From Escherichia coli (GTDB lineage Bacteria > Pseudomonadota > Gammaproteobacteria > Enterobacterales > Enterobacteriaceae): a stretch of DNA of 64,000 bases. The notes beneath the pieces are model-generated. The model did not search any database. It was not told the DNA's origin and worked only from the letters and a program-made list of their open reading frames with translations. The DNA lies in the NCBI RefSeq assembly GCF_003334765.1, contig NZ_QOWT01000004.1, one strand, 5' to 3'. This document shows positions 36,045 through 47,415 of this stretch, in pieces (position 1 is the first letter of the stretch; each line of letters starts with the position of its first letter). The translations under genes were made by a program, and so were the position numbers.

Positions 36045-37316
<1,272 letters not shown>

Positions 37317-37337
37317 GTTGTCATTTTCCACCCTTAT

Positions 37338-37364
37338 AAAAGGTCCGCTTGCGGGCCTTTTTTC
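37338..37364 (+). terminator. Rho-independent terminator downstream of fabF
   Basis: Near-palindrome AGGTCCGC-TT-GCGGGCCT followed by TTTTTT. Confidence 0.7.
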
Positions 37365-37435
37365 TTAGCTTTTATTCCGACTTGTTCCGTAGTGAACATG
37401 CTGCCACACTAACAATTCTCTGATAAGGAGCCGGT

Positions 37436-38245
37436 ATGTTCTTAATTAACGGTCATAAGCAGGAATCGCTGGCAGTAAGCGATCGGGCAACGCAGTTTGG
37501 TGATGGTTGTTTTACCACCGCCAGAGTTATCGACGGTAAAGTCAGTTTGTTATCGGCGCATATCCAGCGACTACAGGATGCTTGTCAGCGGTTGATGATT
37601 TCCTGTGACTTCTGGCCTCAGCTTGAACAAGAGATGAAAACGCTGGCAGCAGAACAGCAAAATGGTGTGCTGAAAGTCGTGATCAGTCGCGGTAGTGGCG
37701 GGCGAGGGTACAGCACATTGAACAGCGGACCGGCAACGCGGATTCTCTCCGTTACGGCTTATCCTGCACATTACGACCGTTTGCGTAACGAGGGGATTAC
37801 GTTGGCGCTAAGCCCGGTGCGGCTGGGGCGCAATCCTCATCTTGCAGGTATTAAACATCTCAATCGTCTTGAGCAAGTATTGATTCGCTCTCATCTTGAG
37901 CAGACAAACGCTGATGAGGCGCTGGTCCTTGACAGCGAAGGGTGGGTTACGGAATGCTGTGCGGCTAATTTGTTCTGGCGGAAGGGCAACGTAGTTTATA
38001 CGCCGCGACTGGATCAGGCAGGTGTTAACGGCATTATGCGACAATTCTGTATCCGTTTGCTGGCACAATCCTCTTATCAGCTTGTCGAAGTGCAAGCCTC
38101 TCTGGAAGAGTCGTTGCAGGCAGATGAGATGGTTATTTGTAATGCGTTAATGCCAGTGATGCCCGTATGTGCCTGTGGCGATGTCTCCTTTTCGTCAGCA
38201 ACGTTATATGAATATTTAGCCCCACTTTGTGAGCGCCCGAATTAG
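37436..38245 (+). CDS. pabC: Aminodeoxychorismate lyase PabC, 269 aa
   Basis: ORF-track protein [50 protein letters not shown]... Confidence 0.93.
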
Positions 38246-38247
38246 TC

Positions 38248-39270
38248 ATGAAAAAAGTGTTATTGATAATCTTGTTATTGCTGGTGGTACTGGGTATCGC
38301 CGCTGGTGTGGGCGTCTGGAAGGTTCGCCATCTTGCCGACAGCAAATTGCTTATCAAAGAAGAGACGATATTTACCCTGAAGCCAGGGACCGGACGTCTG
38401 GCGCTCGGTGAACAGCTTTATGCCGATAAGATCATCAATCGTCCACGGGTTTTTCAATGGCTGCTGCGTATCGAACCGGATCTTTCTCACTTTAAAGCCG
38501 GGACTTACCGCTTTACACCGCAGATGACCGTGCGCGAGATGCTGAAATTGCTGGAAAGCGGTAAAGAAGCACAGTTCCCTCTGCGACTGGTAGAAGGGAT
38601 GCGTCTGAGCGATTACCTCAAGCAATTGCGTGAGGCCCCGTATATCAAGCATACGCTGAGCGATGATAAGTACGCCACCGTAGCGCAGGCACTTGAACTG
38701 GAAAACCCGGAGTGGATTGAAGGTTGGTTCTGGCCAGACACCTGGATGTATACCGCCAATACCACCGATGTCGCGTTACTCAAGCGAGCGCACAAGAAAA
38801 TGGTGAAAGCGGTCGATAGCGCCTGGGAAGGGCGTGCGGACGGTCTGCCTTATAAAGATAAAAACCAGTTGGTGACGATGGCATCAATTATCGAAAAAGA
38901 AACCGCCGTTGCCAGTGAACGCGATAAGGTTGCCTCAGTATTTATCAACCGTTTACGCATTGGTATGCGCCTGCAGACCGACCCGACCGTGATTTACGGG
39001 ATGGGAGAGCGTTATAATGGCAAACTTTCTCGTGCAGACCTGGAAACGCCGACAGCGTATAACACCTATACCATTACCGGTCTGCCGCCAGGTGCGATAG
39101 CGACGCCGGGGGCGGATTCGCTGAAGGCTGCTGCGCATCCGGCAAAAACGCCGTATCTCTATTTTGTGGCCGATGGTAAAGGTGGTCACACGTTTAATAC
39201 CAATCTTGCCAGTCATAACAAGTCTGTGCAGGATTATCTGAAAGTGCTTAAGGAAAAAAATGCGCAGTAA
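38248..39270 (+). CDS. mltG: Endolytic murein transglycosylase MltG (YceG), 340 aa
   Basis: ORF-track protein [47 protein letters not shown]... (YceG-like fold, N-terminal TM helix). Confidence 0.93.
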
Positions 39271-39901
39271 GTATATCGTCATTGAGGGGCTGGAAGGCGC
39301 AGGCAAAACTACCGCGCGTAATGTGGTGGTTGAGACGCTCGAGCAACTGGGTATCCGCGACATGGTTTTCACTCGGGAACCTGGCGGTACGCAACTTGCC
39401 GAAAAGTTAAGAAGCCTGGTGCTGGATATCAAATCGGTAGGCGATGAAGTCATTACCGATAAAGCCGAAGTTCTGATGTTTTATGCCGCGCGCGTTCAAC
39501 TGGTAGAAACGGTCATCAAACCAGCTCTGGCTAACGGCACCTGGGTGATTGGCGATCGCCACGATCTCTCCACTCAGGCGTATCAGGGCGGCGGACGTGG
39601 TATTGACCAACATATGCTGGCAACACTGCGTGATGCTGTTCTCGGGGATTTTCGCCCCGACTTAACGCTCTATCTCGATGTTACCCCGGAAGTTGGCTTA
39701 AAACGCGCGCGTGCGCGCGGCGAGCTGGATCGTATTGAGCAAGAATCTTTCGATTTCTTTAATCGCACCCGCGCCCGCTATCTGGAACTGGCAGCACAAG
39801 ATAAAAGCATTCATACCATTGATGCCACCCAGCCGCTGGAGGCCGTGATGGATGCAATCCGCACTACCGTGACCCACTGGGTGAAGGAGTTGGACGCATG
39901 A
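39260..39901 (+). CDS. tmk: Thymidylate kinase, 213 aa
   Basis: ORF-track protein [44 protein letters not shown]... with P-loop; start overlaps mltG 3' end. Confidence 0.96.
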
Positions 39902-40902
39902 GATGGTATCCATGGTTACGACCTGATTTCGAAAAACTGGTAGCCAGCTATCAGGCCGGAAGAGGTCACCATGCGCTACTCATTCAGGCGTTACCGGGCA
40001 TGGGCGATGATGCTTTAATCTACGCCCTGAGCCGTTATTTACTCTGCCAACAACCGCAGGGCCACAAAAGTTGCGGTCACTGTCGTGGATGTCAGTTGAT
40101 GCAGGCTGGCACGCATCCCGATTACTACACCCTGGCTCCCGAAAAAGGAAAAAATACGCTGGGCGTTGATGCGGTACGTGAGGTCACCGAAAAGCTGAAT
40201 GAGCACGCACGCTTAGGTGGTGCGAAAGTCGTTTGGGTAACCGATGCTGCCTTACTAACCGACGCCGCGGCTAACGCATTGCTGAAAACGCTTGAAGAGC
40301 CACCAGCAGAAACCTGGTTTTTCCTGGCTACCCGCGAGCCTGAACGTTTACTGGCAACATTACGTAGTCGTTGTCGGTTACATTACCTTGCGCCGCCGCC
40401 GGAACAGTACGCCGTGACCTGGCTTTCACGCGAAGTGACAATGTCACAGGATGCATTACTTGCCGCATTGCGCTTAAGCGCCGGTTCGCCTGGCGCGGCA
40501 CTGGCGTTGTTTCAGGGAGATAACTGGCAGGCTCGTGAAACATTGTGTCAGGCGTTGGCATATAGCGTGCCATCGGGCGACTGGTATTCGCTGCTAGCGG
40601 CCCTTAATCATGAACAAGCTCCGGCGCGTTTACACTGGCTGGCAACGTTGCTGATGGATGCGCTAAAACGCCATCATGGTGCTGCGCAGGTGACCAATGT
40701 TGATGTGCCGGGCCTGGTCGCCGAACTGGCAAACCATCTTTCTCCCTCGCGCCTGCAGGCTATACTGGGGGATGTTTGCCACATTCGTGAACAGTTAATG
40801 TCTGTTACAGGCATCAACCGCGAGCTTCTCATCACCGATCTTTTACTGCGTATTGAGCATTACCTGCAACCGGGCGTTGTGCTACCGGTTCCTCATCTTT
40901 AA
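39898..40902 (+). CDS. holB: DNA polymerase III delta-prime subunit HolB, 334 aa
   Basis: ORF-track protein [66 protein letters not shown]...; ATGA overlap with tmk stop. Confidence 0.95.
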
Positions 40903-40912
40903 GAGAGACATC

Positions 40913-41710
40913 ATGTTTTTAGTCGACTCACACTGCCATCTCGATGGTCTGGATTATGAATCTTTGCATAAGGACGTGGATGACGTTCTGGCGAAAGCCG
41001 CCGCACGCGATGTGAAATTTTGTCTGGCAGTCGCCACAACATTACCGGGTTATTTACATATGCGGGATCTGGTAGGCGAACGTGACAACGTCGTATTTTC
41101 TTGTGGCGTGCATCCACTCAACCAGAATGATCCCTACGATGTAGAAGATTTACGCCGTCTGGCGGCAGAAGAGGGTGTTGTAGCGCTGGGTGAAACCGGG
41201 CTGGATTATTATTACACGCCGGAAACTAAAGTACGTCAGCAAGAGTCCTTCATCCATCATATCCAGATTGGTCGTGAACTGAACAAGCCGGTTATCGTCC
41301 ATACCCGTGACGCCCGTGCCGATACGCTGGCAATTCTGCGCGAAGAAAAAGTGACGGATTGCGGTGGCGTACTACACTGTTTTACAGAGGACAGAGAAAC
41401 GGCGGGTAAATTACTGGATCTCGGATTTTACATCTCCTTTTCCGGCATTGTGACCTTCCGTAATGCGGAGCAACTGCGCGATGCTGCGCGTTATGTCCCC
41501 CTGGATCGGTTACTGGTGGAAACTGACTCACCTTACCTTGCGCCGGTACCGCATCGAGGAAAAGAGAATCAACCTGCGATGGTTCGTGACGTTGCAGAAT
41601 ACATGGCTGTGTTGAAAGGTGTTGCCGTTGAAGAACTGGCGCAGGTAACCACCGATAACTTCGCCCGTCTGTTTCACATCGACGCTTCCCGCCTTCAATC
41701 CATCCGTTGA
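40913..41710 (+). CDS. ycfH: TatD-family metal-dependent DNase YcfH, 265 aa
   Basis: ORF 40853-41710; recognised start at internal Met [36 protein letters not shown]... Confidence 0.9.
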
Positions 41711-41859
41711 ATGAGTTTTTTTAAAGCTCGTAATTAATGGCTAAAACGAGTAAAGTTCACCGCCGAAAATTGGGCGGTGAATAACCACGTTTGAAATATT
41801 GTGACATATGTTTTGTCAAAATGTGCAACTTCTCCAATGATCTGAAGTTGAAACGTGAT

Positions 41860-42004
41860 AGCCGTCAAACAAATTGGCACTGAATTATTTTACTCTGTGT
41901 AATAAATAAAGGGCGCTTAGATGCCCTGTACACGGCGAGGCTCTCCCCCCTTGCCACGCGTGAGAACGTAAAAAAAGCACCCATACTCAGGAGCACTCTC
42001 AATT
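41860..42004 (+). promoter_or_regulatory. ptsG promoter and 5' leader region (known targets of Mlc, CRP and the sRNA SgrS)
   Basis: Non-coding region immediately upstream of ptsG; the leader GCACCCAUACUCAGGAGCACUCUCAAUU-AUG contains the RBS segment known to pair with SgrS; individual operator sites not resolved by eye. Confidence 0.5.

Positions 42005-47395: not shown

Positions 47396-47415
<20 letters not shown>
46774..47415 (+). CDS. lpoB: Outer-membrane lipoprotein LpoB (activator of PBP1B), 213 aa
   Basis: ORF 46771-47415; recognised start ATG 46774, [45 protein letters not shown]...; lipobox LAGC then Pro-rich linker. Confidence 0.9.

Follow-up and report, generated by a model that had tools for sequence, protein, structure and literature searches.

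Five genes of Escherichia coli, pabC, mltG, tmk, holB, and ycfH, follow one another with almost no space between them. Does this mean that they are transcribed together, and that their translation is coupled? The genes lie in a 64,000-nucleotide (nt) stretch of E. coli DNA (contig NZ_QOWT01000004.1 of assembly GCF_003334765.1), which we will call the window. A first-pass annotation, made from the letters and a list of open reading frames (ORFs), had proposed both co-transcription and translational coupling. We found that pabC-mltG-tmk-holB-ycfH is a known operon of E. coli, and that its junctions are real, ordinary, and already catalogued. Co-transcription is well supported, and at tmk and ycfH coupling can be no more than partial, so the first-pass interpretation as a whole is partly supported. 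The explanation that we consider quite probable is that this known operon gives one mRNA with compact junctions, at which translation begins in a mixture of modes.

We took coordinates from the ORF listing and from the raw sequence. All five genes, and the other features of the operon described below, are on the + strand. The first gene is pabC (aminodeoxychorismate lyase; 37436-38245), followed by mltG, or yceG (endolytic murein transglycosylase; 38248-39270, with the stop codon TAA at 39268-39270), tmk (dTMP kinase; 39260-39901, with TGA at 39899-39901), holB (DNA polymerase III delta' subunit; 39898-40902, with TAA at 40900-40902), and lastly ycfH (a TatD-family metal-dependent hydrolase; 40913-41710). 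The arrangement described in the first-pass annotation is correct: the genes are on one strand following pabC, tmk starts 11 nt inside mltG (ATG at 39260; mltG ends at 39270), the start of holB overlaps the stop of tmk as ATGA (39898-39901), and ycfH starts 10 nt after holB (which ends at 40902; ATG at 40913). If overlaps are written as negative distances, then the mltG/tmk junction is at -11 (ATGCGCAGTAA, 39260-39270), the tmk/holB junction is at -4, and the holB/ycfH junction is at +10 (spacer GAGAGACATC, 40903-40912). The tmk stop codon TGA and codon 2 of holB (AGA) have two bases in common. There is also a fourth tight junction, absent from the first-pass annotation, between pabC and mltG (+2; TAG-TC-ATG, 38243-38250).

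The start codons of tmk and holB are forced, because in the ORF listing ATG 39260 and ATG 39898 are the earliest start-type codons following an in-frame stop. The P-loop of tmk begins 9 codons past its ATG. For ycfH, we considered a longer reading from TTG 40853, but this is contradicted by the structure of YcfH (PDB 1YIX) and by three other TatD-family chains: these align from Met21-residue 23 of the longer reading, which corresponds to ATG 40913.

The identity of the locus is clear. Of 5426 complete E. coli genomes, 5425 contain a match to the 4.5 kb around the junctions (95-100% identity), and the whole window is 99.98% identical to K-12 MG1655 (11 mismatches and 1 gap). Within the 10 kb around the junctions, there is a single difference from MG1655, at position 40314, which is a synonymous change (ACC/ACT) in codon 139 of holB. 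(This position falls within a hairpin, 40302-40318, that was flagged as terminator-like.) RefSeq annotates fabF, pabC, mltG (yceG), tmk, holB, ycfH, and ptsG here, which correspond to b1095-b1101, so the operon is b1096-b1100. The geometry of the junctions is identical in the RefSeq annotations of K-12 MG1655 and of a near-identical strain, and the unit pabC-mltG-tmk-holB-ycfH that EcoCyc and RegulonDB list for K-12 is the same locus, with no difference of substance.

Several kinds of evidence support the proposed co-transcription. The junctions, at +2, -11, -4, and +10 nt, are too short for a terminator plus a promoter. Upstream, the unit is bounded by the intrinsic terminator of fabF (37338-37366), which we identified from the fold of 37317-37435 and which has a 10-bp stem (AAAAGGUCCG/CGGGCCUUUU), the loop CUUG, and a U-rich tail. 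Downstream of ycfH is a G+C-rich 10-bp hairpin (GUUCACCGCC...GGCGGUGAAU, 41755-41782) without a clean U-tract; to judge by the sequence, it is probably a 3' boundary or a stabiliser of the transcript. The start of the ycfH-ptsG spacer (41711-41830) has a fold z of -4.05, with just 1 of 200 shuffles folding equally well. (There is a further hairpin in this spacer at about 41796-41824.) The mRNA levels of tmk and ycfH (119.8 and 102.6) differ by no more than about 17% and are more than 10-fold below those of the flanking genes fabF (2337) and ptsG (1236) (Burkhardt et al. 2017). The unit is published: Table S3 of Huber et al. (2023), after EcoCyc, places ycfH at distance 10 in the polycistronic unit 'pabCmltGtmkholBycfH', and yceG, tmk, holB, and ycfH share one DOOR operon identifier in a proteomics table (Zhao et al. 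2019). Finally, the gene order is conserved (see below).

Signals within the unit show no excess. Between the fabF terminator and the hairpin after ycfH, there are 4 promoter-like consensus sites, versus 6.5 ± 3.0 in shuffled sequences, and terminator-like sites are not in excess (7, versus 6.2 ± 2.8). Inside mltG, tmk, or holB, the consensus scan, which is blind to weak or non-sigma70 internal promoters, found only one promoter-like site on the + strand, at 38243-38270. Rfam has no match within 37000-42000. We propose that the operon gives one mRNA of about 4.4 kb, whose 5' end would lie between the fabF terminator and pabC, and whose 3' end would lie near the hairpin at 41755-41782.

How would ribosomes start on each cistron of this mRNA? 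The predicted energy of pairing with the anti-Shine-Dalgarno sequence is -8.5 kcal/mol for pabC, -1.9 for mltG, -6.1 for tmk, -8.3 for holB, and -5.2 for ycfH. pabC has a strong Shine-Dalgarno (SD) sequence, AAGGAG. mltG has no recognisable SD and is the sole gene of the unit that lacks an SD-like sequence. The SD-like sequence of tmk (UAAGGAA, 39249-39255) is inside the mltG coding sequence and is followed by a run of seven As (39254-39260) that ends in the tmk ATG. The SD of holB (GAAGGAG, 39883-39889) likewise falls within the coding sequence of tmk and precedes the ATG by 8 nt. The weak SD-like sequence of ycfH (UAAGAGAGA, 40900-40908) spans the stop codon of holB. We also folded the 70-nt initiation regions of mltG, tmk, holB, and ycfH (pabC was not included) and compared them to 200 dinucleotide shuffles. 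We found no structure that would mask the ribosome-binding site at these four downstream initiation regions, as none of them folds better than the shuffles (z = +0.15 for holB, +0.40 for tmk, +1.09 for mltG, and +2.24 for ycfH). The initiation region of ycfH is significantly open: 198 of the 200 shuffles fold at least equally well.

Coupling by termination-reinitiation, in which a ribosome that ends one gene begins the next, depends on spacing, and its efficiency drops steeply with distance (Huber et al.). The +2, -11, and -4 junctions are within the range for reinitiation. The +10 junction of holB/ycfH is outside the range of efficient reinitiation, and the +9 to +12 class to which it belongs is probably initiated independently (Huber et al. 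2023). So coupling of this kind is plausible at pabC/mltG, mltG/tmk, and tmk/holB, as far as can be judged from our analysis of the spacing. Protein levels set a limit on it. In strain BW25113, label-free mass spectrometry gave 71 copies per cell of YceG, 133 of Tmk, 36 of HolB, and 125 of YcfH (Zhao et al. 2019), with ratios that are rough because only 2 peptides were available for each of YceG and HolB. If reinitiation were the sole source of initiation, then a protein should not exceed the one encoded upstream, yet Tmk exceeds YceG, and YcfH exceeds HolB. Hence, either most initiation at tmk and ycfH is independent of upstream ribosomes or there are extra transcripts, and coupling can be at most partial for these two genes. 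Only the level of HolB, at about 1/4 that of Tmk, is compatible with inefficient reinitiation. tmk and ycfH have similar ribosome densities (110.5 and 134.0; Burkhardt et al. 2017).

We infer the shares of coupled and de novo initiation at each junction as follows. pabC would be initiated de novo on its strong SD. mltG, with no SD and a start codon 2 nt past the stop of pabC, would most likely be translated by ribosomes that have just finished pabC, and because every other gene of the unit has an SD-like sequence, it is the best candidate for obligatory reinitiation. tmk and holB, each with its own SD in the upstream gene, probably combine de novo initiation with SD-assisted termination-reinitiation. 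ycfH, which is 10 nt past holB and has an open initiation region, would be initiated mainly de novo. Coupling is plausible for tmk to holB and for pabC to mltG.

Are the junctions conserved? We compared 80 loci from Gammaproteobacteria, with one genome per species, by scanning with an alignment of 10 Tmk sequences. (A direct search for homologues of Tmk gave only relatives of at least 86% identity, so the distant Tmk sequences were taken from a 50% representative library.) In Tmk identity, the loci extend from 97% (Escherichia albertii) down to 44-50% (Legionella, Pseudomonas, and SAR86). We mapped the five proteins of E. coli onto stop-to-stop ORFs and chose starts by alignment position, codon type, and SD; in distant loci, these automated starts could be wrong by a few codons, particularly those of mltG. 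mltG is upstream of tmk in 76 of the 80 loci, and holB is present in all 80 and, with few exceptions, immediately follows tmk. The tmk/holB distance is at most 12 nt in 70 of 80 loci, with 50 overlaps and a median of -4 (-4 in 15 loci, -8 in 14, +1 in 10, and -1 in 7). For mltG/tmk, 56 of 76 are within 12 nt and 39 overlap (median -1; -4 in 20 and -11 in 13), and for pabC/mltG, 49 of 62 are within 12 nt and 35 overlap (median -4; -4 in 17 and -7 in 7). holB/ycfH is looser: 20 of 63 are within 12 nt and 6 overlap (median +55; +10 in 6 and -10 in 5). This junction is tight mainly in Enterobacterales and Vibrionaceae and spans 350-500 nt in Pseudomonadales and Alteromonadales. The -11 form of mltG/tmk (AAGGAnAAnAATGnnnAGTAA) is retained from Escherichia to Yersinia and Rahnella, and the run of seven As is not.

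Overall, the junctions stay tight, but the length of the overlap shifts among the standard classes (-11, -8, -4, -1, and +1). Huber et al. (2023) reported a median of -4 for Tmk@HolB (lower quartile -4, upper quartile +3, n = 835) and of -1 for MltG@Tmk (lower quartile -4, upper quartile 12.5, n = 352), and the medians from our 80 loci equal these. Across the 80 loci, tight junctions do not have weaker SDs, but we conclude nothing from this, as the comparison is circular: the procedure that picked the starts used the SD as a criterion. Some loci have unusual arrangements. In Pseudomonas fluorescens, a small PilZ-like ORF (L074 5128-5496; TIGR02266, below the cutoff) lies between holB and ycfH. 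In Thiobaca, a gene for acetolactate decarboxylase (L063 4416-5273) lies between tmk and holB, and in two loci from Cellvibrionaceae (L078 and L083), tmk and holB are separated by 0.9-2.2 kb.

These data also bear on other explanations of the junctions. The overlaps could be by-products of the turnover of start and stop codons, with each cistron initiated independently via its own SD on the shared mRNA. We view this as possible, if somewhat doubtful. It would explain why a usable SD is present at each of tmk, holB, and ycfH, why the protein levels (71:133:36:125) are neither monotonic nor equal, and why the overlap length drifts among relatives whose proteins are conserved. It also fits with the viability of a strain in which a 3-nt insertion made the overlap of tmk and holB smaller, and with a native E. 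coli -4 pair, bioBF, that is uncoupled. However, it does not explain why mltG lacks an SD and begins 2 nt past the pabC stop, and four of the five E. coli -4 pairs that were tested are coupled: three strictly and one at about 60% (Huber et al. 2019). It also fits poorly with the finding that 70 of the 80 loci, including some with a Tmk identity as low as 44%, have tmk and holB within 12 nt of each other. Alternatively, promoters within the upstream coding sequences (such as one for holB in tmk, or one for ycfH in holB) might drive much of the downstream expression, in which case the tight junctions would be uninformative about co-regulation. This would account for the excess of YcfH over HolB (125 versus 36 copies), and another sheet of that table has YcfH (391) far above Tmk (34). 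The consensus-like holB promoter that Carter and colleagues reportedly described in 1993 would also fit. We consider it unlikely, given the single + strand site within mltG, tmk, and holB, the smaller number of sites overall than in shuffled sequences, the similar mRNA levels of tmk and ycfH, and the publication of the unit as one polycistronic transcript.

Two further explanations invoke features of the mRNA itself. If downstream ribosome-binding sites were locked in hairpins that only ribosomes translating the upstream gene could open, then initiation regions should be structured. The AUG of holB is indeed paired in a local hairpin of the minimum-energy fold. But since no initiation region folds better than its shuffles, coupling through the unmasking of a sequestered site is unsupported, and with ycfH significantly open, we regard this as very improbable. 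We also considered slippage by +1 on the seven As at the mltG/tmk junction (GGAAAAAAATG), which would enter the tmk frame exactly at the ATG and yield an MltG-Tmk fusion protein. Slippage has almost no chance of being correct: seven As are short for efficient slippage, and the slippery run is not conserved, as it is broken in Yersinia, Rahnella, and Enterobacter sp. Ag1 (AAGGATAAGAATG, AAGAATAAGAATG, and AAGGATAAAAATG), Enterobacterales in which the overlap is still -11. Furthermore, the C-terminus of MltG is periplasmic, so a cytoplasmic kinase that was fused to it would be misplaced.

Returning to one mRNA with mixed modes of initiation, a few points weigh against it. As bioBF is a -4 pair and is uncoupled, geometry alone is no proof of coupling. 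The roughness of the copy-number ratios and the blindness of the promoter scan, both described above, count here too. The holB promoter reportedly described by Carter and colleagues is another such point. In the literature that we searched, we found no direct test of coupling in the pabC-ycfH operon or of a single full-length transcript of it. Similarly, the operon's genes have no entry in the supplements of the SMRT-Cappable-seq paper, the 3'-end mapping of Adams et al. (2021), or the TetRP start-site paper.

How unusual is such an arrangement? In the window, 19 of the 50 pairs of neighbouring genes on the same strand are at most 12 nt apart, and 6 of the 50 overlap. The other compact runs include hinT-ycfL-lpoB-thiK-nagZ (+2, +13, -20, and +10), lolCDE (-8 and -1), and rimJ-yceH-yceM (+10 and +1); these runs and the flg operons have the same classes of junctions with different genes. 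Because comparable junctions are found in other operons of the window, we view the pattern as generic operon architecture. Across the E. coli genome, -4 is the most frequent configuration; 707 of 2,987 unidirectional pairs (24%) are at -8 to +6, and 203 (7%) are at +9 to +12 (Huber et al. 2023). Of the +9 to +12 pairs with characterised transcripts, 194 of 201 are polycistronic (Huber et al. 2023). So the tight junctions do not exceed chance in any interesting sense, only in the sense that operons are non-random. Elsewhere in the window, the 20-nt overlap of lpoB and thiK (47396-47415) is the longest overlap on the same strand, and thiK is annotated with a GTG start. Rfam matches above the gathering score are the rne 5' untranslated region element (28528-28864, - strand), the small RNA SraB (30725-30893, + strand), and the PyrC leader (6744-6793, - strand), all of which this region of the E. 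coli chromosome is expected to contain.

While collecting Tmk homologues, we noticed a natural tmk::holB fusion. The protein P0180 is a single ORF of 456 amino acids with Thymidylate_kin and DNA_pol3_delta2 domains. It is encoded by two metagenome contigs from two samples, which are nucleotide-identical (L085 3001-4371 and L086 911-2281), and it lies downstream of nrdB and a gene of the BPL/LplA family. P0180 has the full Tmk domain. Alignment of its HolB part to the E. coli protein begins only at residue 67, which implies a short or divergent N-terminal region of HolB. (Three other hits to Tmk in the database, namely the PanB-Tmk chimera P0003, the Tmk-MurA chimera P0121, and P0001, which has internal duplications, look like assembly errors rather than biology.) The fused ORF, together with the -4 median over 835 pairs, suggests that dTMP kinase might physically associate with the delta' subunit of the clamp loader. 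If so, then co-translational assembly would tether the synthesis of dTTP to the replisome, and there would be more to the overlap than compaction. We think that this is very unlikely to be true. The pair is not a known complex; the known partners of HolB are the other subunits of the clamp loader. Short overlaps are enriched among subunits of complexes (Huber et al. 2023), from which an association of Tmk with delta' would be predicted. However, neither Tmk@HolB nor MltG@Tmk is flagged as a complex in the COG-pair table of the same study.

As a textbook compact operon in the best-annotated bacterial genome, the locus has little discovery value. The natural Tmk-HolB fusion ORF is the only lead with any novelty, and it is mildly interesting. 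In practice, the junctions matter for recoding and engineering, where edits at codon 2 of holB or at the 3' end of mltG alter two essential genes together, as was the experience of Napolitano et al. (2016). Also, insertions in the unit, or CRISPR interference (CRISPRi) against it, would have polar effects on tmk and holB. A CRISPRi study of essential genes invoked an operon effect to account for a shape phenotype of holB, stating that 'holB is upstream of mltG' (PMC8510551). The actual order is the opposite, with mltG upstream of holB, and the effect would therefore need another cause, such as reverse polarity.

What the junctions reveal was in print already. Table S2 of Huber et al. (2023) gives the same four distances (+2, -11, -4, and +10). 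With the membership of the operon and its conservation across species also published, the first-pass annotation adds nothing beyond what was known. The adjacency of mltG, tmk, and holB across Gammaproteobacteria was noted by Wirth et al. (2023; PMC10653934). Exactly the same ATGA junction was altered by Napolitano et al. (2016; bioRxiv 10.1101/069385), but theirs was an engineering study without a measurement of coupling. When codon 2 of holB is changed from AGA to CGU, Cys replaces the stop of tmk and Tmk becomes 14 residues longer, which was apparently deleterious. A strain with a 3-nt stop inserted ahead of the start of holB, which reduces the overlap, was viable. Among E. coli pairs whose coupling was measured with premature-stop reporters, hyfHI, astDB, ydbH-ynbE, and menDH (Huber et al. 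2019, 2023) have short overlaps like those here, and in them, as in this operon, the upstream gene contains an SD whose strength varies. One difference is that many of the coupled E. coli test pairs encode subunits of one complex, while Tmk@HolB carries no such flag in Huber's table. Pseudomonas has the same gene order and a tmk/holB overlap as in the window. It differs in having GTG starts, an overlap of 8 nt (-8 in our Pseudomonas loci), and the small PilZ-like ORF between holB and ycfH. In Pseudomonas putida, tmk-holB was treated as translationally coupled and was rebuilt as TGATG (Wirth et al. 2023; PMC10653934).

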